From a virus, in UHGV virus genome UHGV-0293664: a DNA stretch of 64,000 bases. One strand, written 5' to 3'. The notes below the pieces were generated by a model. It saw only the letters and a list, made by a program, of their open reading frames with translations, had not been told where the DNA came from and ran no database searches. The position numbers and the translations under genes were made by a program. This document shows, in pieces, positions 1,375 to 45,679 of the stretch; within the stretch, counting starts at the first letter, position 1, and each line of letters opens with the position of its first letter.

Positions 1375-4300
1375 TGCCAATTGCAATGATTGATAACATC
1401 GTTGCTTCTGCAAGATCTTCAAGTTATGACTGGAACGCATCCAAGGCAGCTCTGGCTGACAGCCTGAACACTGTTACCACCAGAACTCTGGATAAGATTT
1501 TTGAGGGCAACAAATCTTACAGAAGTCAGCAAGATAGACAAAAGCTTCTCAGATCTTCTGCTGCACCCTGCTCTGTAGTGTATGGGAAGACACGCACATC
1601 CGGATTGCTTGCGTTTTTGGAGCAGGACAGAGACAGAACCCTCCATTGTGCTATTGTTCTTGCCAATCATCCTCTAGAAGGTATAGAAGACATACTCATC
1701 GACGGTAATCCTATTTCCTCGTATGGAGATCTGGTATCGTGGGAGCTACATAACGACAGAAAAACATCTGATCCTTTCATGGGTACACACTGCCCATCAT
1801 GGTCACCTGACATGATAGGTAGAGGGATCAGTTGGCTACGTGCCAGCTTCAGGTTTGACCCTAACAAGTTTCCTTTTGGGTTGCCAAACGTTACACTCGT
1901 TAAGGTTGGTAAAAAATGCTATGATCCTCGCATCAGTAAAGAGGTGTATACCAATAACGCGGCCTTGGTGATTCTAGACTATTTAAGAACGTACCTTAAA
2001 TGTCCTGACGAAACCATCAACTGGGAGTCCTTCAAGGAGGCTGCTAACATATGCGACGAGGCGGTAAAAAACGCAGACGGAACCAGTGAGCGCCGATACA
2101 CCATTAATGGCGAGTTTGACATGGACGAGGCTCCGGCAAGCATTATGGCAGAAATGCTGAAAGCTTGTGGCGCAGATCTCAGCTATGTAGCTGGTAAGTA
2201 TGGTTTGCTGGTTGGTGCATACTATGGCCCGGCAACAATGACGCTGAGTGAGGATTGTGTCTGTGGTGAGGTTAAGATCTATCCGGAAGCCTCGTTTGAC
2301 AAAAGATCCAACACAATAACTGGCAGATTCACCAGTCCGACCAAAGGGTATTCTGAAACAGATTTTCCATCAGTGTTTGTCCCAGAGTGGATAGAGAAGG
2401 ATGGAGAAAGAAAGATAATCGATATAGACTACCGCTTTGTTACCAGCCCTTATCAAGCTCAGCGTGTTTCTGCAATATTTTTAAGACGTGCTAGAGCTGG
2501 CAGGATTATTGAAGTCACCTGCAATATGCGAGGTTTTAAATTTAAACCTGGCCGTTACGTTACAATGAATCTCCCAAGTATTGGTATAGTGGGCCAAGAA
2601 ATGAGGGTTCTTGAGTGGGAGTTCACCAAAAAGGGCGGTGTCAAGGTAAAACTTCGTCAAGATGCTAAAGAGTGGAATGATGCCACAGGGCAACTTCCGG
2701 ATTCTGGCGATGTAGATATTCCGATATCCCCATCCGGTGTAGCTCAACCGCAAAACTTCAGATACTCCGTCCTCCAAGCTGGGGAAATAACTCACGGTGT
2801 TCTGGCTTGGGACAACGTTGGGACTTACGCTCAAAATATTGTGCAGGTAAGAAAGAACGGAGAGATTGTTTGGACAGCACAGACAGTTGAGCAGTTTGTC
2901 CGAGTAGAAGGCTTGACCAAAGGGTCATACACAGCAACCGTGGTTGCAACATCCTATAAAGGTGGTGTATCTCCAGAAGCGTACTGCGAGTTTAACATTC
3001 AGGCACCTGAAGCTCCGGTTTCTGTAGAGGTTAAGCAGGGATATTTCGCTATCACCTTGATTCCGCATAGTAGGGATTTAGCAAGCGTAAGCACCCAGTA
3101 TGACTTTTGGACATCTGGTATGACAAGGTTGCCAGACACCAGTGATGCTACCGTTACTTCAAAAGCCACCCGTATGGGTGTTGGTTCAACTTGGACGTCT
3201 GAAGGTCTCCAGAACGATAAGGTTTATTATTGGTATATTCGAACCACAAACGCTTTTGGTAGCTCTCAGTTTGTAGAATGCGCTGCACGCTGCTATACCT
3301 CTATTGAGGATTTGATGCCTCAGATAGATGCTGAATTCAAAAAGACAGAAACTTATAAAGAGTTGATGAGCACTTTGGATTCCTCTATTGAAGAGGTTGA
3401 AAATCGTGTCACAGAACTTAACAGGTACATGGATGGTAGGGTAGATGAAGCGTTCCAACAACTTGGGGACAGAATAGGTGCGGTAGTTACAGAAACAACT
3501 CAGAAGTTTGAAGATGTCAATGGTAACATTACAGCGCTGGATAGGAAACTTGTTGCTGCACAGAACAAATTCACCAACGATCTGAACACTGAAAGTGGCA
3601 GACTGGCATCTCTGATCGAGACAACCAATAAAGCAACTACTGATCTTCTGAACAAAAAGACAGAGGCTTTAGATGAGAAATTGGTTGCCGCCAAAGGTGA
3701 GCTGGTAGAGCAGATAGAGGGAGTTGAGAGCGGGTATTTAGCCGGAGATAAAACTCTGGATGGTAAGATCAATACTCAGAGAACAGAACTTGACGCAAGC
3801 ATCTTGAGCACTAACCAGGCAACTGTGGATCTTTTGAACAGGACATCTGAAACTCTGGATCAAAAGATCAGTCAGACAAACGCGACGGTATCTAAAAACT
3901 ATACCACCCTGGATGGCAAGATAACCACCGCAAAAACTGACCTCAACACCTTGATTGCCAATACCAACAAGGCCACCACTGACTTGTTGAATCAGAAAAC
4001 ATCTGCACTGTCAGAGCAGATAACTTCTGCACGTGGGGAGATTTCTACCAACAAGCAGGCGATTGATGCTTTGGATGGAAAACTGACTTCCACAAAAACA
4101 GCGCTGGATGCTACAATTTCCGATACCAACAAAGCCACTGTGGACCTTATCAACGGCACAGCGTCAGCTATTCGTCAAGAACTTGCTGTTGCTAAGCAGG
4201 AGATCATTGATGATGTTGGGGATGTGTCCGAGATCAGGGCTGCAGTAGCTACAACATCTAAGGCTGTAACCGACTTGGAGGGTAAAGTAAATGCTCAGTG

Positions 4301-5213
4301 GGGTACAAAAATACAGGTGGACTCCGCAGGGAATAAATATGTTGCAGGTATCCAGTTGGGGATGGAAGGGTCTGGGGGCCAAGTTCAATCCTACTTCATG
4401 GTTAGCGCAAACAATTTTGCGGTATACAACCCCGGCAATGGAACAGCAACCCTTGCTTTCGCAATCAAGAACAACCAAGCGTTCTTGAAAGACGCTTTTA
4501 TAGAGAATGGCACGATCTCTTCTGCCAAGATCGCACAAGAAATTTCGTCAAACAACTACGATGGCAACGGGTACCATAAATACGGTTGGTATATTAACAA
4601 GAACGGGCACGCCCAATTTATGGATGTGTGGGTGAAAGGCAACATCAACGCCAGTTCTGGTAACTTCACAGGGGCAGTTAACGCCACTAGTGGTACCTTC
4701 CGTGGGGATGTTTATGCCAACAATGGTAGCTTTAGGGGCACCATAGATGCAACCGGAGGTACCTTCCGTGGGCGTGTAGAAGCTTCTGTTATCCGCGCTA
4801 ACCAGTTCGAAGGTGCAATTGTTGCACACAGGACTTACGGAGATTGTGCTCCAGTATATAACTCCCGGCAAAGGGTTTGCCGTTGGAGGTGGAGATATGT
4901 GGACAACGTGCAAGGCCAAGGTAAAAACGTAACATTCTTCTTTAAACTGAACGGTACTCGTGCCAACTCTCAACTAAATGCGTGGATAGCTGGTCACCAA
5001 CTACTTGCTGGCAAGAAGTACGGAAACGATAACGATGGCATGTGTGCAGTTGGGATAACAGGTCTAGGTGAACAAACTATAGACATTATTATCGAGATTT
5101 ACACACCATGGTCAACAGGGAACGTGACAGGCATTACAATATCTTGTCCTACAGTCGTTGTAAGTCGTTCTAACTCAAGTTTCCAAGGTCCTTGGAATGA
5201 GTCTCACGACTAA
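1374..5213 (+). CDS. Central tail fibre / host-specificity protein (lambda gpJ-like) with inserted coiled-coil repeat segment
   Basis: 1279 aa; GYFAITLIPH, YYWYIRTTNAFGSSQFVE and YVAGIQLGMEG segments align to lambda J from memory; periodic TTDLLN/ATVDLLN repeats. Confidence 0.85.
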   Translation: MPIAMIDNIVASARSSSYDWNASKAALADSLNTVTTRTLDKIFEGNKSYRSQQDRQKLLRSSAAPCSVVYGKTRTSGLLAFLEQDRDRTLHCAIVLANHPLEGIEDILIDGNPISSYGDLVSWELHNDRKTSDPFMGTHCPSWSPDMIGRGISWLRASFRFDPNKFPFGLPNVTLVKVGKKCYDPRISKEVYTNNAALVILDYLRTYLKCPDETINWESFKEAANICDEAVKNADGTSERRYTINGEFDMDEAPASIMAEMLKACGADLSYVAGKYGLLVGAYYGPATMTLSEDCVCGEVKIYPEASFDKRSNTITGRFTSPTKGYSETDFPSVFVPEWIEKDGERKIIDIDYRFVTSPYQAQRVSAIFLRRARAGRIIEVTCNMRGFKFKPGRYVTMNLPSIGIVGQEMRVLEWEFTKKGGVKVKLRQDAKEWNDATGQLPDSGDVDIPISPSGVAQPQNFRYSVLQAGEITHGVLAWDNVGTYAQNIVQVRKNGEIVWTAQTVEQFVRVEGLTKGSYTATVVATSYKGGVSPEAYCEFNIQAPEAPVSVEVKQGYFAITLIPHSRDLASVSTQYDFWTSGMTRLPDTSDATVTSKATRMGVGSTWTSEGLQNDKVYYWYIRTTNAFGSSQFVECAARCYTSIEDLMPQIDAEFKKTETYKELMSTLDSSIEEVENRVTELNRYMDGRVDEAFQQLGDRIGAVVTETTQKFEDVNGNITALDRKLVAAQNKFTNDLNTESGRLASLIETTNKATTDLLNKKTEALDEKLVAAKGELVEQIEGVESGYLAGDKTLDGKINTQRTELDASILSTNQATVDLLNRTSETLDQKISQTNATVSKNYTTLDGKITTAKTDLNTLIANTNKATTDLLNQKTSALSEQITSARGEISTNKQAIDALDGKLTSTKTALDATISDTNKATVDLINGTASAIRQELAVAKQEIIDDVGDVSEIRAAVATTSKAVTDLEGKVNAQWGTKIQVDSAGNKYVAGIQLGMEGSGGQVQSYFMVSANNFAVYNPGNGTATLAFAIKNNQAFLKDAFIENGTISSAKIAQEISSNNYDGNGYHKYGWYINKNGHAQFMDVWVKGNINASSGNFTGAVNATSGTFRGDVYANNGSFRGTIDATGGTFRGRVEASVIRANQFEGAIVAHRTYGDCAPVYNSRQRVCRWRWRYVDNVQGQGKNVTFFFKLNGTRANSQLNAWIAGHQLLAGKKYGNDNDGMCAVGITGLGEQTIDIIIEIYTPWSTGNVTGITISCPTVVVSRSNSSFQGPWNESHD

Positions 5214-5317: not shown

Positions 5318-6808
5318 GTGGCTAAGTATGGATTGACAGAGGCTGGTTTCGTTATACCAACCCTAAATGACCTAATCGTTGAAACTAAGCAAAGCCTGAT
5401 CCGTGCTTTTGGCGAAAACTTCAACGTACAGAGTAACTCCGTTGCAGATAAGCTGACCACTATCTTCAACGAGCGAGAGTATCAACTTATTCTTATGGCA
5501 GCATCTGTATACGCATCACAGACGCTGTATGGGGCAGAAGGTATTTACCTGGATGAGCTTCTTGGAAGACAAGGTATTTACCGAAGAGGCCGTTCTAAAT
5601 CATCAGGTACCTGCCAGTTGACAATCAACACAACTGTGCCGTACAATATGATTTACGATTCCAAAACTTACACACTGGACAGTGGGAACTTTGTTCTTAG
5701 CAATGACGTGCAGGTAGCGGGAAATCTTATTGCTCATAGGATAAACGCTCCAGATCTAAGAATTGGGAAATACAACTTTCAAATTACCAACCAGACAGAT
5801 GGAAGTATCAAAACAAAAAGTCTGGTTTTAACAGATAAGGCTCTGGACTCTTCTGATCTGCCAAGCTTTTACGGAGAGATTAAGCAGTTCATTGTCGATA
5901 ATACAACCCTGTTGAACGACGATTTGATTCAGATCGATATGTTGACAGGAACGTTGTGGATAGGGTACAATTCGAATCTTGATCAAGTTGGACTTAATAG
6001 TAGAGTAGATTTCAGGGTATCCCCGATTGTAGGGGAAAGAACTATTACCCTGGATGTTATCGCTAACGAGGCTGGTGAGCTGTCAAGAGAGGCAGAAACC
6101 GTGACAACAATGTCGCCTACTCCCAGCGGATTTATCAAACTCACCAACCGAGAAAGATTCAATGAGGGTAGGGATGTTGAGAAAGACTCAGAGTATCGCT
6201 TAAGAGCTTCCAGCACAAAACAGTTAACATCTAAGGCTACCCGTCCTGCAATCCTTAGCGCTGTAAGCGAGGTGAAAGGTGTTGAGAAAGTGAGAGTGTT
6301 CTCCAACAACACCGATAAAACTGATGCTAAAGGTATACCTCCTTACAAGTTCCAAGTGGTTGTGTTTGGTGGTGCAACGGAAGACATTTGCCAAGCACTT
6401 TACCAAACTATAGCCTGCACGAACAGGACTTATGGTAATATTTTCTACGATGTCACTACATCTGACGGTCAAACTGAAAGAATTTATTACTCCAAGGCAA
6501 ATACCTACCGCCTAGATGTAAGAATTACCTACTCCGGTGCTGCGCTTTCCACAACCGAAAAAGATGCCATTACAGAGGCCCTTTTGCATGTTGTTAACGG
6601 ACTAGATGTTGCAGATACGTTGTACAATATCCAATTGGTCGGTGCTGCATCTGCTGCTGTGTCGATAGGCAGATTTAATAGACTGGTAATTCAAGTTAAA
6701 CCAGTAGGAGCTTCTGATGAAGCTTACACTACAAACGATATTGTTGCGAACATGACCGAGGTGTTTGACCTCGACGAAAGTAATATAACTTTCCAACAAA
6801 CTATTTAA
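5318..6808 (+). CDS. Tail/baseplate structural protein
   Basis: 496 aa; GTG start with GGAGGAG RBS; located in tail module. Confidence 0.5.
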   Translation: MAKYGLTEAGFVIPTLNDLIVETKQSLIRAFGENFNVQSNSVADKLTTIFNEREYQLILMAASVYASQTLYGAEGIYLDELLGRQGIYRRGRSKSSGTCQLTINTTVPYNMIYDSKTYTLDSGNFVLSNDVQVAGNLIAHRINAPDLRIGKYNFQITNQTDGSIKTKSLVLTDKALDSSDLPSFYGEIKQFIVDNTTLLNDDLIQIDMLTGTLWIGYNSNLDQVGLNSRVDFRVSPIVGERTITLDVIANEAGELSREAETVTTMSPTPSGFIKLTNRERFNEGRDVEKDSEYRLRASSTKQLTSKATRPAILSAVSEVKGVEKVRVFSNNTDKTDAKGIPPYKFQVVVFGGATEDICQALYQTIACTNRTYGNIFYDVTTSDGQTERIYYSKANTYRLDVRITYSGAALSTTEKDAITEALLHVVNGLDVADTLYNIQLVGAASAAVSIGRFNRLVIQVKPVGASDEAYTTNDIVANMTEVFDLDESNITFQQTI

Positions 6809-38637: not shown

Positions 38638-38666
38638 GGCCCTGCCCGAAAGGGTGGGGCTTTTTG
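38638..38666 (+). terminator. Rho-independent terminator
   Basis: CCCTGCCC-GAAA-GGGTGGGG hairpin then TTTTT; duplicated at 49350. Confidence 0.75.
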
Positions 38667-38683
38667 CATTAGGAGACAGCAAA

Positions 38684-39295
38684 TTGAAATTTATATACAA
38701 AGAACACTACCACAAAGGTGTTGTGTGGAGTCTATTTGACGGGTCTGGTGGTGCAGTCATTGACTGGGCAAAAGCTGGGTACCTGTGCCTGTGCTTTAAT
38801 GCAGAAGGTGCTGATCACGGCAGTTATGCAGAGGTGATCACCGATCATCCCAACATTCACTATGTTGATTATTGGATTGACCCATGGTTCCCTCAGGAAA
38901 CTTTTTGCATGTACCCAGCTCCAGACTTTATTCTTGCATTTCCTCCGTGCACGCATTTAGCGGTGTCAGGTGCTGCACATTTTAAGAAAAAGCTGGCTAA
39001 GGACCCCCTGATCCAAATTAATGCTGTAAAGGATGCTCGGGTTGCGGAAGAGCTGGGAGAGATTTACGATTGCCCGTGGCATGTAGAGAATCCTGTGGGT
39101 GTTATGTCCACACTGTGGCGCAAACCTGTCCCGCAAATAGTTGACGTGGTTAGCGGGTATTCCATGCAACACGCCAAGCTGGGTGGAAAGAGTGCAAGAA
39201 CGAAGATGATTCGAAGCCTCACACCACGTGGCTGGGCAAAAGCCGTATTCTTAGCAAACGAGCCTGTAGTAAGGAGCAGAATTAATGGGAAGTAA
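38684..39295 (+). CDS. Small C5-cytosine methyltransferase-like protein
   Basis: TTG start after AGGAGA; motif I LFDGSGG, motif IV-like FPPCT, motif VI-like HVENP; about 203 aa, no obvious target-recognition domain. Confidence 0.5.
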   Translation: MKFIYKEHYHKGVVWSLFDGSGGAVIDWAKAGYLCLCFNAEGADHGSYAEVITDHPNIHYVDYWIDPWFPQETFCMYPAPDFILAFPPCTHLAVSGAAHFKKKLAKDPLIQINAVKDARVAEELGEIYDCPWHVENPVGVMSTLWRKPVPQIVDVVSGYSMQHAKLGGKSARTKMIRSLTPRGWAKAVFLANEPVVRSRINGK

Positions 39296-41363
39296 ATTTA
39301 TGGCATCTGCATACAACCGTTTCGGCGAGCCAAACCCGAAAGCAACTAAGTATAAAAGTGGGGGAAGTGTGAAACGAGACTATCGTGATGAAAAAGAAGT
39401 TGAAACTGTAGAGACTGTTTTAGAAAATACTAAAATTGTCCCTGTCCCACAACAGAATATCGGTCTGATGGCTGCACAATATTTTGGTGTGCGATCAGCA
39501 TTGTCCCAAGAAGACGGTGTGACAGTCACTGCAACATATTTCCCATATTACGACCGCTACGGAAATCTGTCCGGTTTCAAAAAGCGTGACTGGACTATTC
39601 CTAAAGAGCAAAGGGGCCATTTCTCCGTTGTTGGCATCGTAAAGGCCAACTCCCAGATGTTTGGTCAAAAGCTGTGTGCATCTTCCAACAACCGTAAGCA
39701 GATCAACGTTTGTGAGGGAGAAGGTGATGTTATTGCAGCATGGCAGGCTGCATATCAGATACAAGTAAAAGGGATTCTCACCAATGCTAAAGCCCCGGCA
39801 AAGGTGAAGCAGTGGGCTAAAGAGGTCCAGGACGGGATCGATGCAGTTATCAACGGCGGTGATCTGGCAGGAAAACCCTGCCTGCCTTTTGTTGGAATTA
39901 ACTGTGGATGTGCAAACGCAGTAGATACTTTTGCAAACAATGAGAAGTTTATCCGTAGCTATGGAACAGTTGTGCTGGCAATGGATAACGATGCAGCTAA
40001 CGAGGTAGAGAAGCAAAAACACGTCATTAAAGGTGTTGAGGCCACGCACAATATCGCAGCATTTTTAATGGCTGATAACGTTTACCACGTAGAATACCCT
40101 GGTGAAGTAAACGACCCTGACGGTGTAAAAGATATCCGAGACATGCTGAAGGCTAAAAAGCTGGAAGATATTGTCAACATGTTCCGGCATCCTGTTAAAT
40201 ATGTGCCTGATGCTGTGTCGGATTTAGAAGACTTCTCTATCGAGTCTTTGCGGAAAAAGACTTCCAACGGGGTAGATATCAGTGCAGAGTTCCCAAAACT
40301 GCAAAAAATGCTAAAAGGCTTGCACAAAGGGACACTTGTAATGCTTACAGGTCCATCAGGCGGCGGTAAAACAACCGTGGCTAAAAAACTGGAACACTGT
40401 ATTGCAAGATACCTAATGGACCCGACATGCCAGAAGGCTGATGACTATGAAGAGGATGATCGTCTATGTATGATCCATCTTGAGGAGGACCCAGAGGAAG
40501 CAATTAACTCCTTGTATGCAAACCAGTTAGGGTTTGATGTTAAAGAGTTTGTTGAAGATCCTAGCCAGTTTTTAACTGATCAAGAACACGCAGAGATTCA
40601 CCAATCATGGGCAAAAGCTGGAAAAATCAAAGTGTTCAAACATTTCGGATCTATTCCGGTGGACGAGTTGATTACCAAGCTTAAGCAAATGGTTTGCCTG
40701 TACCATTGCCGTTATATTGTGCTGGATCACCTGTCCATGGTAATTTCAGGGCTTAATGTTAAGGATGAGCGAAAAGAACTGGACATGGCTATGACTCAGC
40801 TGGCTGCGTTTTGTAAGCAGTTTAACGTGTTTATCTTGGTGATCGCTCACCTCAAACGTACAGAGATTGTGCCTCCTAAGGACAAGGATGGTAACCCGTT
40901 ACCTTTCTGGTATCCTGTGCGAAAAGAGAATTTGCGAGGATCGGCGGGGCTTGAACAGTTGAGTTGGGTAGTCATAGGTGTCGAGGCCGAAGAAATGGTG
41001 GATCGTTCTCGTGGACGTGTCCGTCTGGTAGGTCTTAAAAACCGTCCAGCAAAAACTCTAGGTATTGCTGACACTTTGGTTATGGACCCGCACACAGGTA
41101 AGTTCCATGATGCCAGTAATTGGTACTGGGACAAAGAAATGCAAATGTTTACAGACGGAGAAGGTGGGGAGGTTGTTTGGAGACCTCAGGCTATGTTTGA
41201 GGATCAGGAGCATGCAGTTGTAGAAACACCTATGGGCAAGGTTGTGGCTGATAAGGTTGTAACTCCTACTGTTAAGTCTGTTGACACGCAGGAAGACCTC
41301 CAGTACGATGATCCATCCTCTGACCCGGTCCCCGGTTTTGAGGATGATGAAACGCCTTTTTAA
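39285..41363 (+). CDS. Primase-helicase (TOPRIM plus DnaB-like)
   Basis: CEGEGD and AMDNDAANE TOPRIM-like; Walker A GPSGGGKTT; acidic C-terminus EDDETPF. Confidence 0.75.
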   Translation: MGSKFMASAYNRFGEPNPKATKYKSGGSVKRDYRDEKEVETVETVLENTKIVPVPQQNIGLMAAQYFGVRSALSQEDGVTVTATYFPYYDRYGNLSGFKKRDWTIPKEQRGHFSVVGIVKANSQMFGQKLCASSNNRKQINVCEGEGDVIAAWQAAYQIQVKGILTNAKAPAKVKQWAKEVQDGIDAVINGGDLAGKPCLPFVGINCGCANAVDTFANNEKFIRSYGTVVLAMDNDAANEVEKQKHVIKGVEATHNIAAFLMADNVYHVEYPGEVNDPDGVKDIRDMLKAKKLEDIVNMFRHPVKYVPDAVSDLEDFSIESLRKKTSNGVDISAEFPKLQKMLKGLHKGTLVMLTGPSGGGKTTVAKKLEHCIARYLMDPTCQKADDYEEDDRLCMIHLEEDPEEAINSLYANQLGFDVKEFVEDPSQFLTDQEHAEIHQSWAKAGKIKVFKHFGSIPVDELITKLKQMVCLYHCRYIVLDHLSMVISGLNVKDERKELDMAMTQLAAFCKQFNVFILVIAHLKRTEIVPPKDKDGNPLPFWYPVRKENLRGSAGLEQLSWVVIGVEAEEMVDRSRGRVRLVGLKNRPAKTLGIADTLVMDPHTGKFHDASNWYWDKEMQMFTDGEGGEVVWRPQAMFEDQEHAVVETPMGKVVADKVVTPTVKSVDTQEDLQYDDPSSDPVPGFEDDETPF

Positions 41364-41378
41364 TGTTTAACAAAGAGT

Positions 41379-41403
41379 GGGAGGGGTAGTACAACCGCCT
41401 CCC
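41379..41403 (+). promoter_or_regulatory. Hairpin, possible weak terminator or leader structure
   Basis: GGGAGG...CCTCCC stem followed by CTTT. Confidence 0.3.
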
Positions 41404-41421
41404 CTTTAAGGAGAACACTTC

Positions 41422-42156
41422 ATGAACGAGTTCAGAGATCACTGTGTAGCCAATCACTTGTGGTCAGAGATATTGGAGTATGACGGTCAAAATCTTTTTT
41501 GGAAGATAGACATTCTGGCAGGTAGCGGTGTAGGATATGTTAAAACTTCAGCAGGCTCTAGAGCTGACAAGGGGCAAGATGCTGATGGCAGGCCTGTGGT
41601 CAGTCTAGGAAAGCATTGCACTAAAGGTGCCCACGTCATAATTTGGGAAATGTTTAACGGTCCTGTACCGGAAGGGTATGAGGTTGACCACATCAAGGAG
41701 ATAAGAGAAACAGGTGGTGTGGCTGATAACAGTATTCAAAATTTGCAACTGCTCGAGCCTACAGATAACAAAAAGAAAAGTTGCAAGATACCTCGTAGTA
41801 ACAACAAGTCTGGTAGGGTCGGGGTGCACTATTCTGAAGAAAGAGAGGCATGGATAGCTCAAGGCACAGATTCTGCAGGTGAAAGAGTCTGGCTAGGCCA
41901 GTACAGAACTTTTGAAGAGGCAGAGTGGGCAAGAAAGTTCTTCGAAGATAATGGTTTTTCGCACAAGAGTGGAAGAGCCGTGCAGTATAATAACACCAGC
42001 GGTTGCTCAGGGGTGAATTGGGATAAAACCCATGAAAGATGGGTAGCCAGAATTTATGTAGATGGTAAAAGGAAATGCCTTGGGTATTTCAAGAACAGAG
42101 AAGATGCAATAGCTGCAAGAAAGAGTGCTGAGAAGAAACAGGAGGAGACAGTATGA
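41422..42156 (+). CDS. HNH homing endonuclease with AP2 DNA-binding domains
   Basis: EVDHIKEIRETGGVADNSIQNLQLL HNH motif; two AP2-like repeats; inserted between primase-helicase and polymerase. Confidence 0.7.
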   Translation: MNEFRDHCVANHLWSEILEYDGQNLFWKIDILAGSGVGYVKTSAGSRADKGQDADGRPVVSLGKHCTKGAHVIIWEMFNGPVPEGYEVDHIKEIRETGGVADNSIQNLQLLEPTDNKKKSCKIPRSNNKSGRVGVHYSEEREAWIAQGTDSAGERVWLGQYRTFEEAEWARKFFEDNGFSHKSGRAVQYNNTSGCSGVNWDKTHERWVARIYVDGKRKCLGYFKNREDAIAARKSAEKKQEETV

Positions 42157-44930
42157 GTAATTGGTGCTTCGACTTGGAGGCCTCCGGGCTTTTGGAAGAC
42201 CCAGATCTTTATTATCACTGCGGTCTGTTTAAAGAGCTGAATAAGAACCGTTTTATGCTGTTCCTTCCTCTAAATGACCGCACACACTACTCCGAGGAGG
42301 ATATAGAGAAGGCTAAGAACTTTATTCTGGCAAAGAAAACTCTTTATAAAGATTTTGAAGTTCGCATAGCAGATTTTTCGGAGTTGGAAGGTTGGCTTAC
42401 AGGCAATTCCGACTGGTCACCAACAGCTTTGAACTGCCATAACTGCTACAGTTATGACTTTATGCTAATGGAAAGATTGTCCGGTATTCATTTTGATATG
42501 TTCCGTGATCCTAAATGCATGGGGACTATCAACGACCACCAGGTTAACCTGTTTGATACGTTGGCGATGAGCCGAATCTTGTGGCCTGATCGCCCTTTAC
42601 CAAAAGGTTGTCCGGACTCTGTATTCAACCCGGTTACTAAGAAAATGCAGCCTGTTGGTCCTCACGGCCTTATGGCATGGGGCTACGCCCTTGGTAACCA
42701 GAAAGTTCAAATTGATGACTGGCGTGATCTTCCGTTGTGGAAGTATGTGGATCGTGTATTCGAGGACGTTATCATCCAAGAGCTGCTCTGGAAAGAGCTG
42801 GTAGCGGAATCAAAAGGTGTATTCTACGGCAAATCTGACATGCAGAACTTTATGTACGATCCTGCCAAAGAGAAGCCGAAAGGGTTCAAGAAGATCACCT
42901 GGAAGAACGCATTACGCCGAGGCATGCTGCAGCACTTCCTGATGGAGCTGCAGGCCCGTCAGGGTGTGTATTTCGACATAGATGGAGCTATTGCTTTACG
43001 TGACCGTTGCGATGCGTGGATGAAAGAGATCGCTGATCGTGTTGAACCTCAACTTCCTTTAAAAGAGTTGTCAATGTCTCAGCGGCCCAAGTTCCCTGAA
43101 AAGCCGTTTAACCAAGATGGGACAATCTCCAATAATGGTTGGAAATGGTTAAAAGATAAGCTTGGCTATCCTGTGGACATGAGCGCTTTAGAGTTCAAAG
43201 CCCCGCCTAAGCGAGCATTTACCTCCACAGGGGATGTCAGTAAGATGGGGATAAAGTGGTGTGAAGAGATGGGCTGCAAAGACCCAGATAAGATGGCTGA
43301 TTTCTTGAGAGGCTATATTAAGGGCACCTCCACACCACAACCTTTACCTAAAGAGCTAATGGATCAGGCAATAAGTGATCTACAGCAGAAGCGAATGCCG
43401 GACTGCAAGATACCTATGAAAATCAGCAATCAGGACGACATTAAGAGATACCTGATCAGTGCTGGTTGGCTTCCGACAATGTGGAGAACTAAGGATGTAA
43501 CTAAAGACAGCAAGAAGAAAGCTCTACCTGATGCAGATGTTGATGCACGAGTGTATGCATATATGGACGAGCTTTTAGAGTCAGAGTATTGTGACCTAAT
43601 TATCAACTTCTGGAACAAAACTGATGCTAAGTTCCAGACAACCGTGCACAAGTTCCGAAGCTTTCCTAACTCTGAAAGGATTAAAAAGGAAGTATTCGGG
43701 AAAATACGTAGAAAAGCTAGGACACTTATTACTTCTCCGCAGCTGAAAGATACGTTTGGACACCTATGCCCGAATCTTGAAAAATTGAACGGGGAGATGG
43801 CTAAAGATATCGTCTTGTGGTTATCATTGCGAAACCGCAGATCGGTCCTTGATCCAATCAAGGAGGATAAGGTTGATACTGGTCTTCTTAATCACCCACG
43901 TTTGAAGATTGACCATAAGCTTCCGGCTAAAAGCTCTGGATTAACAAACACTTCCAGACAGAAACACAGTATTTGTGCAAACATGCCTAAACCATCTCCT
44001 AAAGTGGTTATGGGTAAAGAGATGCGCAGTCTGTGGGGTGTTCCTCCAGGATACTTTGAGATCGGTATTGACGGGTCCAACTTAGAGCAGCTTATCGGGG
44101 CTTGGGGTGCCTTTGAGTTCGACAACGGCTTGTATTATGATGTTGTAAGTAACGGGGACGCACACCAAAACAATGCTGAGGCATATACAAAAGTAGCAGG
44201 CAGAGAGGTGTCTCGTAACGACGGTAAACCTATCACGTATGGGGTTATGTATGGGGCACAAAAAGACAAAGTTGCAGACATGCTGGATATCTCCCCAGAG
44301 TTGGGACAAAGGGTAATCGATGCACTTTGGGATGCCAACCCCGGTCTTAAGGGGCGTAAAGAAGATCTGGAGAAATTCTGGGAAGCAACGGGTAAGAAGT
44401 TTATCTACTCTTTTGATGGTCATGCTATCTGGACCCGATCTAAACACTCTTTACTTAATGCATACCAACAGAATGGTGGTGCATCGTTGTGTGACTTAGT
44501 TGGGATACTCATGCACCACCAAATGGTGAAGCGCGGGTGGTACGATGAAGGTGTTCGTCGTATTATTTATTACCATGACGAATATCAGCTTCAAGTCCCT
44601 GACACACCTAAGTATAAGACTGTGTACACCTTCGACACAATTGAAGAACTGGAAGCATTTAAGGCAGAGCAGGAGGCCAAACTTCATGTGTTCGACGGTC
44701 ATAAGTACAAAAAGGCACGCAAGGATGAGGACGGAAACGAAGTGGTTGACAGAGACGGAAACACGGTGTACGATCCTATCCTGAACGATGACGGAAAGCT
44801 TGAACTTATCTGGAGCCCTGTGGGTGAAATGGTGGTGCATTGCTTCTGGCAAGCTTCTAAAATGATGGGAGTCCCGTTCCAGATCACAGGTGAATACTTG
44901 TGCGGTCGTAATTGGGGTGATTGTCACTAA
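42153..44930 (+). CDS. Family A DNA polymerase with 3'-5' exonuclease domain
   Basis: Exo I FDLEASG; K...YGVMYG motif B-like; YYHDE motif C-like. Confidence 0.8.
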   Translation: MSNWCFDLEASGLLEDPDLYYHCGLFKELNKNRFMLFLPLNDRTHYSEEDIEKAKNFILAKKTLYKDFEVRIADFSELEGWLTGNSDWSPTALNCHNCYSYDFMLMERLSGIHFDMFRDPKCMGTINDHQVNLFDTLAMSRILWPDRPLPKGCPDSVFNPVTKKMQPVGPHGLMAWGYALGNQKVQIDDWRDLPLWKYVDRVFEDVIIQELLWKELVAESKGVFYGKSDMQNFMYDPAKEKPKGFKKITWKNALRRGMLQHFLMELQARQGVYFDIDGAIALRDRCDAWMKEIADRVEPQLPLKELSMSQRPKFPEKPFNQDGTISNNGWKWLKDKLGYPVDMSALEFKAPPKRAFTSTGDVSKMGIKWCEEMGCKDPDKMADFLRGYIKGTSTPQPLPKELMDQAISDLQQKRMPDCKIPMKISNQDDIKRYLISAGWLPTMWRTKDVTKDSKKKALPDADVDARVYAYMDELLESEYCDLIINFWNKTDAKFQTTVHKFRSFPNSERIKKEVFGKIRRKARTLITSPQLKDTFGHLCPNLEKLNGEMAKDIVLWLSLRNRRSVLDPIKEDKVDTGLLNHPRLKIDHKLPAKSSGLTNTSRQKHSICANMPKPSPKVVMGKEMRSLWGVPPGYFEIGIDGSNLEQLIGAWGAFEFDNGLYYDVVSNGDAHQNNAEAYTKVAGREVSRNDGKPITYGVMYGAQKDKVADMLDISPELGQRVIDALWDANPGLKGRKEDLEKFWEATGKKFIYSFDGHAIWTRSKHSLLNAYQQNGGASLCDLVGILMHHQMVKRGWYDEGVRRIIYYHDEYQLQVPDTPKYKTVYTFDTIEELEAFKAEQEAKLHVFDGHKYKKARKDEDGNEVVDRDGNTVYDPILNDDGKLELIWSPVGEMVVHCFWQASKMMGVPFQITGEYLCGRNWGDCH

Positions 44931-44946
44931 TGTAAACTATCAACAC

Positions 44947-45264
44947 ATGGAAGTGTTGTTGAGCAAAGAGGAGACTTTTATGGTAGTAGAACCAACAAAA
45001 ACATTTACATCCATGACTATTCCTGTTATTATGCAGGTGGAGTGTGTTCAGGTATCTCAAGTGTGGCCTGGCACCAAAATCCCGACAGGGCCTGATTTCT
45101 TTCAGGTTGGCAAAGTGTACAATGTCTGGAAGGCACCAGATTGTTACCCTTTCATCAAAGATGACCGTGGGATGCTGTGGTATCTTGGAAATGATTTGAC
45201 ACTGCACCTTGGGAATGCTATTATTGCAGTATTCAGACTTAACAAGAAGGAGACTGATCAATGA
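44947..45264 (+). CDS. Small protein, dispersed paralog family
   Basis: 105 aa from ATG 44947; IKDDRGMLWYL motif. Confidence 0.5.
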   Translation: MEVLLSKEETFMVVEPTKTFTSMTIPVIMQVECVQVSQVWPGTKIPTGPDFFQVGKVYNVWKAPDCYPFIKDDRGMLWYLGNDLTLHLGNAIIAVFRLNKKETDQ

Positions 45265-45488
45265 CGACTTTGGTTAAAGCTACCTTTGTAGAAGAAAAGA
45301 TGACAGACCTGTCATTCTTTAAAGAAGGAAAGACCTACGAGGTTTATTACGATAAAGCTCGTGCAAATAAAATGATTAAAGACGAGGAAGGGGTTGCCTG
45401 GCTTATCTCCCATCTGGCAAACGGTGAGTATCATATCTACGGAACCACCCTGCTTGCCAAGTTTGTAGCTGTTGAAGAGGACCTATGA
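45261..45488 (+). CDS. Small protein, dispersed paralog family
   Basis: 75 aa; ATGA overlap; IKDEEGVAWLI motif. Confidence 0.5.
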   Translation: MTTLVKATFVEEKMTDLSFFKEGKTYEVYYDKARANKMIKDEEGVAWLISHLANGEYHIYGTTLLAKFVAVEEDL

Positions 45489-45679
45489 AAGTAAAGTATC
45501 TGGCTGAGGGTATGAGTAGGTATTTCACCCTTGGTGAAGAATATTGGCCATTTACAAGCAACGGCGATGTCTACGTGAAAGATAATTTCGGCACGCCATG
45601 GTTTTTGCACTCTAACGGGTTAGGGTATTCTATTTATCGCAGTGCAATGAGCGACACAACCCTTGCAGAGTTTGTATAG
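45485..45679 (+). CDS. Small protein, dispersed paralog family
   Basis: 64 aa; ATGA overlap; VKDNFGTPWFL motif. Confidence 0.5.
   Translation: MKVKYLAEGMSRYFTLGEEYWPFTSNGDVYVKDNFGTPWFLHSNGLGYSIYRSAMSDTTLAEFV

Follow-up and report, generated by a model that had tools for sequence, protein, structure and literature searches.

What kind of gene occupies the junction between the primase-helicase and DNA polymerase genes of the UHGV virus genome UHGV-0293664, and did it come there by its own mobility? The question is raised by an intact, ATG-initiated open reading frame (ORF) of 244 amino acids at 41422..42156 (+ strand) of a 64,000-nucleotide (nt) stretch of that genome, which was analysed as a whole and is called the window here. 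A first-pass annotation had placed this ORF between the two replication genes, as is borne out by the ORF call and by PHROG, Pfam, and PDB matches to its neighbours. Megablast assigns the window to the genus Vequintavirus (rV5-like coliphages), with top matches 97 to 98% identical across a 5.6-kb region. We propose, with a probability of roughly 85%, that comparative sequence analysis has identified a functional, free-standing homing endonuclease gene (HEG) that was inserted at the start of the polymerase gene and is mobile by homing.

The distribution of the gene exemplifies its dispensability. A 793-nt query comprising the intergenic region and the gene, with full coverage counted as presence, found the HEG in 10 of 121 matching GenBank phage records, corresponding to eight distinct phages (JES2013, O157 typing phage 4, C2, C5, navn, WalterGehring, FFH2, and HdK5; JES2013 and FFH2 were each found twice). 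Records without the HEG match only the first 53 to 62 nt of the query, which are the intergenic region, and the empty junction of phage inoa is complete in 108 records. Carriers span at least two species of the International Committee on Taxonomy of Viruses (JES2013 and FFH2), and PDX, which belongs to species FFH2, lacks the gene. A scan of IMG/VR with the endonuclease protein gave no match, and a scan with the polymerase recovered only 6 loci, the junction being empty in all of them. The view that the ORF is a mobile element marking a variable junction is upheld by these counts.

The insert itself could be delimited by comparing nine occupied (HEG+) sites with eleven sampled empty (HEG-) sites at the base level; the empty sites were chosen partly for their unusualness. 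The distance between flanking anchors is 849 nt in occupied sites (848 nt in HdK5, which has a 1-nt deletion) and 118 nt in most empty sites (two sampled ones measure 119 and 122 nt), giving an insert of 731 nt. Because ATGA stands at both ends, the insert can be placed at 41422-42152 or, shifted by 4 nt, at 41426-42156; identity to empty sites stops at position 41416. Reading ATGA...ATGA as a target-site duplication was rejected: a start codon plus a functionally required stop/start overlap is simpler, and homing makes no duplications. In three empty genomes (Pr121LW, EduardKellenberger, and 241Ecol014PP), the spacer has the same ACTTT as in occupied sites. The idea that such sites are precise excisions of the HEG is unsupported, as their polymerase codons 3 to 5 (ATG TAT AGC) match neither allele.

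The position of the insert reveals a takeover of the polymerase translation signals. In occupied sites, the HEG ATG stands where the polymerase ATG stands in empty sites, 8 nt past the same AAGGAG. The last codons of the HEG carry a new Shine-Dalgarno sequence, AGGAGGAG, at 42140-42147, and the HEG TGA overlaps the polymerase ATG as ATGA at 42153-42156. Direct reading of the sequence places this replacement polymerase translation start at 42140..42156 (+), inside the 3' end of the HEG. The arrangement of AGGAGGAG and ATGA recurs in all occupied sites, including relatives only 65 to 84% identical, and it should, by sequence, keep the polymerase translated via coupling. The ORF is therefore flanked by both replication genes, as the first-pass annotation had it, but "between" is better replaced by a more exact statement: it occupies the polymerase's own translation-start position.

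Footprints of recent mobility were found in a nearly isogenic pair, WalterGehring (HEG+) and inoa (HEG-). On the left side of the ATG, these phages differ at 7 positions in 2637 nt, two near the primase 5' end, two in the last 90 nt of primase, and three in a 5-nt spacer; the whole primase gene has 4 differences, and about 1.7 kb on the left side is identical. Within polymerase nt 1-48, there are 14 differences (at nt 8, 9, 14, 15, 22, 24, 28, 30, 33, 36, 37, 39, 40, and 48), followed by none in nt 49-582 and the next at nt 583. The concentration of differences in this patch versus its flanks is significant by Fisher's test (p=2.7e-20). The window compares similarly with inoa, with 12/60 differences in polymerase nt 1-60 versus 4/270 in nt 61-330. 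The patch lies at 42153..42200 (+), comprises codons 1-16 (MSNWCFDLEASGLLED), and includes the D-x-E of the exonuclease motif Exo I. This pattern is what homing with a short co-conversion tract leaves. Moreover, AGTAATTGGTGC at polymerase nt 4-15 (Ser-Asn-Trp-Cys) is present in 9/9 HEG+ sites and 0/11 sampled HEG- sites, and right-junction identity to the window exceeds 95% in all ten HEG+ records, with 93.6% for the best HEG- record. Rather than standing in all relatives with no signature of insertion, then, the gene is a precise 731-nt insert at which near-identical genomes differ.

These comparisons also bear on the idea that the protein has been domesticated, its AP2 domains now controlling expression of the polymerase or the operon, or its nuclease serving replication or recombination, such that it is no longer selfish. 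Consistent with a regulatory role are the location in a replication operon at the polymerase start, the predicted translational coupling, strong purifying selection, and the retention of the locus across distant phages; additionally, phages use AP2-type DNA binders as repressors in other contexts, as a bioRxiv paper reports. However, about 92% of close relatives lack the gene and have an intact polymerase start, and little apart from the insert and a short conversion tract distinguishes the near-isogenic pair. Conservation also extends to the catalytic residues, and cross-group transfer with a co-conversion tract, described below, is a signature of homing and not of a fixed regulator. We consider domestication quite improbable.

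Further evidence for homing comes from the HEG alleles. The window allele differs from the other eight copies by 23 to 26 nt, comprising 17 to 18 synonymous and 5 to 8 nonsynonymous codon changes, and those eight differ from one another by 0 to 7 nt. The window and WalterGehring show 3 differences in the last ~990 nt before the HEG ATG (41277, 41354, and 41421) and 24 within the 735-nt gene. Because these alleles diverge despite a near-identical left flank, they arrived separately or were exchanged, which implies at least two separate acquisitions or allele exchanges. Nei-Gojobori ratios of nonsynonymous to synonymous substitution rates (dN/dS) range from 0.066 to 0.079 within the genus and from 0.056 to 0.25 across the lineage, and these low values indicate that the protein has been kept functional by purifying selection.

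Alternatively, the gene could be a decaying, inactive remnant that spreads or persists by ordinary recombination and linkage to the polymerase. The HdK5 copy is frameshifted at HEG nt 465, and homing endonuclease genes are expected, from their life cycle, to decay once fixed, as is generally known and has been discussed for HNN-AP2 genes (PMC2248197). Against inactivity, the window and 7/8 other copies have an intact ORF, the dN/dS rounds to 0.07 within the genus and to 0.06 to 0.25 across the lineage, and no HNH core residue varies in the close family. The gene is also far from fixation (~8% of records), a phase in which active homing is expected. An inactive remnant is, in our judgment, improbable.

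What, then, is the encoded protein? Pfam PF13392 (HNH_3) matches amino acids 68 to 116 with an E value of 5.3e-12 and 45.6 bits versus a curated cut-off of 24.8, and PHROG_99 ("HNH endonuclease") matches with an E value of 3.8e-52. The HNH motif (EVDH...DNS..NL) that had been read directly from the translation could be located, with EVDH at amino acids 87 to 90, DNS at 102 to 104, QNL at 106 to 108, and DNKKK at 115 to 119. In a 103-sequence family alignment, D89, H90, N107, L108, and N116 are at least 90% conserved, and the HNH core residues are all invariant in the close family. The protein has the features of a His-Me finger nuclease, namely, a beta-beta-alpha-metal fold, a D-H general-base pair, and a conserved Asn metal ligand, and it has no CxxC zinc site.

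Every structural statement made here rests on a predicted model. The AlphaFold2 model (mean predicted local distance difference test score, 83.7) contains an N-terminal beta-rich module, a beta-beta-alpha core at amino acids 87 to 121, and two beta3-alpha units at amino acids 135 to 177 and 198 to 243. The N-terminal module, which is predicted to contact DNA, and the catalytic beta-beta-alpha-metal core that follows it together correspond to 41422..41769 (+; amino acids 1 to 116). AP2-fold repeat 1 lies at 41809..41952 (+; about amino acids 130 to 177), as evidenced by the model elements (strands 135-138, 143-149, and 155-161; helix 164-177), a weak match to ERF096, and an alignment with repeat 2, which lies at 41998..42150 (+; about amino acids 193 to 243). 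In the model, the units show the AP2 fold, a three-stranded antiparallel sheet against one helix that is superposable on solved AP2 domains. Foldseek on the predicted model agrees with the domain assignment, and a profile built from close relatives detects the AP2 protein WRI1 with an E value of 0.008. The earlier claim of two AP2-like repeats accordingly holds at the level of predicted fold and of mutual alignment, but not by Pfam, whose AP2 model scores under threshold. When the endonuclease was used as a single sequence, a PDB search gave no meaningful match, and the family profile and fold searches were the informative ones; NCBIfam returned no family match for the endonuclease.

Taken together with the comparisons below, the protein belongs to the I-HmuI-like (HNH_3, or "HNN") branch of His-Me finger nucleases and carries two AP2-fold DNA-binding domains. 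The HNH homing endonucleases I-HmuI, I-HmuII, and I-BasI (structure 1U3E) come from Bacillus phages SPO1, SP82, and Bastille, where they reside within the gene for DNA polymerase. Enzymes of this type target the phage DNA polymerase gene and act as monomers on an extended asymmetric site; I-HmuI itself, a nickase, is the nearest structural relative of the window protein. "Group 2" of the His-Me finger homing endonucleases comprises I-HmuI and HNH_3 proteins with NUMOD, helix-turn-helix (HTH), or AP2 specificity modules, and the window protein shares this group with I-HmuI, I-HmuII, and I-BasI (Jablonska et al. 2017; PMC5714182). Sequence identity to the I-HmuI group is nevertheless only ~16%, and the C-terminal part of I-HmuI consists of helical/HTH modules, in contrast to the two AP2 domains of the window protein. 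Furthermore, the I-HmuI group is encoded inside group I introns, whereas the window gene is free-standing.

An architectural parallel is provided by the phage HNN-AP2 endonucleases, which have the same domain architecture (PMC2248197). The HNN-AP2 genes of T1, T5, RB16/RB43, and Xp10/OP1/Xop411 (Magnani et al. 2004) encode the same HNH_3-type core without zinc-binding cysteines, followed by AP2 (PMC2248197), and tblastn identified relatives that are 30 to 45% identical in T1-like and other enterobacterial phages. Most HNN-AP2 proteins differ in having one AP2 domain and a length of ~150 to 180 amino acids, compared with the two AP2 repeats of the window protein. Also, the HNN-AP2 genes of Xanthomonas phages are reported to be dispersed and to have no conserved flanks (PMC2248197), while the window lineage is strictly site-specific.

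This domain composition speaks to another possible identity, an HNH accessory nuclease with a non-homing role, such as terminase-associated packaging or the degradation of host or competitor DNA. It is general knowledge that many phage "HNH endonuclease" annotations cover such proteins and that marker exclusion of competitors is a side effect of homing endonucleases. The gene, however, lies away from the terminase, is missing from most relatives and hence dispensable there, keeps a site-specific position across lineages, and encodes a protein of the HNH_3/I-HmuI group with sequence-specific AP2 modules rather than one of the zinc-binding HNH group. We therefore give an accessory role almost no weight.

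Is the homing endonuclease encoded by an intron? Rfam identified no family at E<=0.1 in 39000-45500, although the same tool, as a positive control, finds a group I intron in the WalterGehring polymerase, and the window polymerase ORF is continuous over 925 amino acids. An intron-encoded endonuclease of the I-HmuI or I-TslI type was rejected on these grounds, there being no intron RNA and no interruption of the polymerase. With no intron RNA and with its own start and stop codons, the HEG is free-standing, in agreement with the first-pass annotation.

Introns are nevertheless present in related polymerase genes. In WalterGehring and FFH2, a group I intron interrupts the polymerase near nt 2430 (5783-6584 of locus L002, or about 44576 in the window). 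The WalterGehring intron matches Rfam RF00028 with 40.5 bits, below the gathering score of 50, at an E value of 1.8e-8, and it carries a second endonuclease gene at L002 5933-6439. An extra polymerase segment of 276 nt in C2, C5, navn, and IMG/VR locus L005 is possibly an ORF-less version of the same intron.

Among free-standing systems, the T4-like genes SegF, SegG, and MobE exemplify "intronless homing" and are commonly described as lying, like the window HEG, between two conserved genes and being present or absent in close relatives. Their target is in an adjacent essential gene, flanking markers are co-converted, and resistant polymorphic target alleles are linked to the gene. The tract of 14 substitutions found here (polymerase nt 8-48) is the same kind of footprint as that co-conversion. 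Differences exist too. The SegF, SegG, and MobE genes are merely intergenic, whereas the window HEG takes over the ribosome-binding site and start of its target and supplies new ones. Seg proteins are GIY-YIG enzymes and MobE is an HNH protein of another group (group 1 in PMC5714182), and none of them has AP2 domains.

A case nearer in taxonomy is CB7_54, which can be likened to the window HEG by position: it comes from the same phage subfamily and has the same position relative to the polymerase gene. CB7_54 was found to be unspliced by reverse transcription-PCR and hence free-standing (PMC7344957). CB7 has 23 homing endonuclease genes, including two polymerase introns, in contrast to the intronless polymerase of the window.

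Does the association with the polymerase start extend beyond one genus? A search of ~5.8 billion proteins identified relatives at 84, 81, 68, and 65% identity. Each of the four genes lies ~60 nt past a DnaB-type helicase gene and overlaps the gene that follows by 4 nt. That following gene has a Pfam DNA_pol_A match in one locus (L028), and the polymerase motif can be recognised at the N-terminus of its product in all four. A second phage group, whose polymerase DNA is ~73% identical to that of Vequintavirus and which has no close GenBank relative, includes both occupied and empty sites: four empty sites have polymerase starts of MALF[CL]YDFE, and two occupied sites have MSMWCFDLE and MSIWLFDAE. 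One occupied locus (L027) provides evidence for transfer between the groups. Its polymerase nt 1-38 has 3/38 differences from the Vequintavirus HEG+ patch, and its sequence from nt 40 onward matches the empty sites in its own group with no differences; the breakpoint at nt 38-40 indicates that the HEG crossed between groups together with ~38 nt of donor polymerase.

The L027 endonuclease (4001-4753; protein P0004) is itself a mosaic. It resembles the alleles of the second group (P0005-P0007) over its N-terminal two-thirds and the P0002/Vequintavirus type in its C-terminal AP2 repeat, which indicates that endonuclease alleles recombine with one another. In the more distant occupied loci L024, L025, and L027, the polymerase is split or enlarged (608+307, 600+525, and 1149 amino acids) and the helicase is enlarged (996 and >1347 amino acids), which suggests additional introns or inteins in replication genes. 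Also, several relatives have a second landing site at the methylase/primase junction, occupied by a different HNH_3 and AP2 gene that is ~35% identical (L028 1200-1871; Phage 203 [MG022439] 131103-131738). This junction is empty in the window (39285-39295), where the two genes overlap.

The likely target follows from what the converted tract encodes. In a HMMER alignment, polymerase residues 7 to 46 (DLEASGLLEDPDLYYHCG...) align with T7 gp5 residues 5 to 43 (DIEANALLESVT-KFHCG...); this segment has a weak score alone and is colinear with the strong polymerase-domain match. T7 gp5 D5 and E7 are the Exo I proofreading residues, and alignment to them indicates that the converted tract encodes the Exo I motif. 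Homing endonucleases typically recognise conserved, essential sequence. The probable target is the polymerase start region encoding the Exo I motif, with the tract as a candidate target or immunity region.

The mechanism we envisage would begin in a mixed infection, in which the protein, as a monomer stretched along a long asymmetric site, would bind the region around the polymerase start of a HEG- genome and nick or cut it there. Recombinational repair from the HEG+ genome would then copy the gene along with the first 40 to 50 nt of the donor polymerase. Carriers would owe their protection to the insert, which would cut the site off from its upstream half, to the linked substitutions at polymerase nt 8-40, which would abolish recognition, or to both.

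Several observations weigh against this interpretation or parts of it. The linked polymerase patch could be hitch-hiking donor sequence rather than a determinant of immunity. Its downstream half (polymerase nt 21-40) is found also in the HEG- genomes YP-6 and PDX and in IMG/VR locus L005, which are recombinants with a crossover inside the patch, and the HEG-linked codons 3 and 5 (Asn and Cys) differ in more distant occupied loci. The diversity maximum at polymerase nt 1-30 (nucleotide diversity, 0.154) is biased upward by the unusual empty-site sample, and other bins reach ~0.10. For the protein, the Pfam AP2 model (PF00847) gives 29.8 bits, below the gathering cut-off of 33.3, with an E value of 7.6e-7 over two stretches. 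Lastly, the HdK5 HEG has a 1-nt deletion at gene nt 465 (about 41886 in the window; L012 459-1192) that splits it into an HNH ORF of 157 amino acids and an AP2 ORF of 58 amino acids, reflecting early decay or a sequencing error.

A more speculative extension is that the element, beyond being a passive parasite, is a portable "endonuclease plus polymerase N-terminus" cassette, homing of which would swap codons 1-16, by the Exo I Asp/Glu. Over many rounds of invasion and escape, codons 3-5 would have become a hot spot of amino acid change. Variants of polymerase codons 3-5 include M-W-S, M-Y-S, M-W-N, and N-W-C, and in the second group the empty sites have L-F-C and L-F-L, and the occupied sites have M-W-C and I-W-L. 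If this unlikely idea were true, a selfish nuclease would be the force behind diversification, adaptive or at least functional, at the proofreading end of an essential replicase, and that polymerase segment would be exchanged across phage genera.

The homing interpretation is accompanied by a defined set of neighbours. The HEG (41422..42156, +; 244 codons of ORF and an inserted segment of 731 nt) is preceded by a DnaB-type primase/helicase gene at 39285..41363 (+), which encodes 692 amino acids, matches PHROG_239 (E=8.8e-160) and Pfam AAA_25 and DnaB_C, and is outside the mobile unit. It is followed by the presumed target at 42153..44930 (+), a T7-like family A DNA polymerase gene of 925 codons that matches PHROG_17, PHROG_8888, and Pfam DNA_pol_A. 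In a full-length search, the closest PDB relative of the polymerase was T7 DNA polymerase (E=4.9e-16); a PDB search with the N-terminal 250 amino acids by themselves gave no match. A tblastn search found no paralogues of the endonuclease in the 64-kb window.

The 58-nt gap between the primase stop codon and the HEG holds a GC-rich stem-loop at 41374..41407 (+; predicted RNA fold, -20.4 kcal/mol; z=-2.6), followed by TTT and the Shine-Dalgarno sequence AAGGAG at 41408-41413. The stem-loop sequence is identical in occupied and empty sites, and the more distant phage group has an analogous stem-loop. It failed the terminator rule of a consensus scan, and that scan for promoters and terminators yielded nothing exceeding shuffle expectation.

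The exact protein is already in public collections, where its 90%-identity cluster bears the names "putative homing endonuclease," "AP2 domain protein," and "HNH endonuclease." A literature search found no paper on this specific gene, and the BASEL paper says of the larger genomes only that they commonly show homing endonucleases and gene conversion. The gene is an uncharacterised new representative of a well-known element type that is expected in a large lytic phage. Its main interest lies in the clean natural before/after pair of WalterGehring and inoa and in the cross-group co-conversion. On the evidence of this pair, recognition probably takes place within ~60 bp around the start of the polymerase gene, which offers a defined substrate for a two-AP2 HNH enzyme. 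As a reagent for nicking or cutting at long sites, such an enzyme could be of modest interest. For annotation, the ORF is to be regarded as a mobile, dispensable element and not as a core replication gene. The HEG also accounts for a local drop in identity at the 5' end of the polymerase gene. Vequintavirus phages feature in collections for phage therapy and biocontrol, and this drop could lead astray both their phylogenies and the design of primers for them.

The comparisons produced several additional observations. Upstream of primase, the gene for a Dcm-like cytosine methylase (38654..39295) has a 153-nt in-frame deletion (51 codons) at 39121|39122 relative to inoa, WalterGehring, and JES2013, bounded by the 7-nt direct repeat AAACCTG; judging by this sequence, the window methylase may be inactive or altered. 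Sixteen GenBank "Campylobacter phage" records of the MG0656xx series (UNVERIFIED; e.g., L013, L014, and L022) are 97 to 98% identical to E. coli Vequintavirus in this region, and their Campylobacter host label is doubtful. Finally, the rV5 reference DQ832317 (L023) has one extra base near polymerase nt 15-20 compared with all other genomes, as a consequence of which its polymerase is annotated from an internal start with a spurious 26-amino-acid ORF in front; the extra base probably reflects an error in the sequencing of the type genome.

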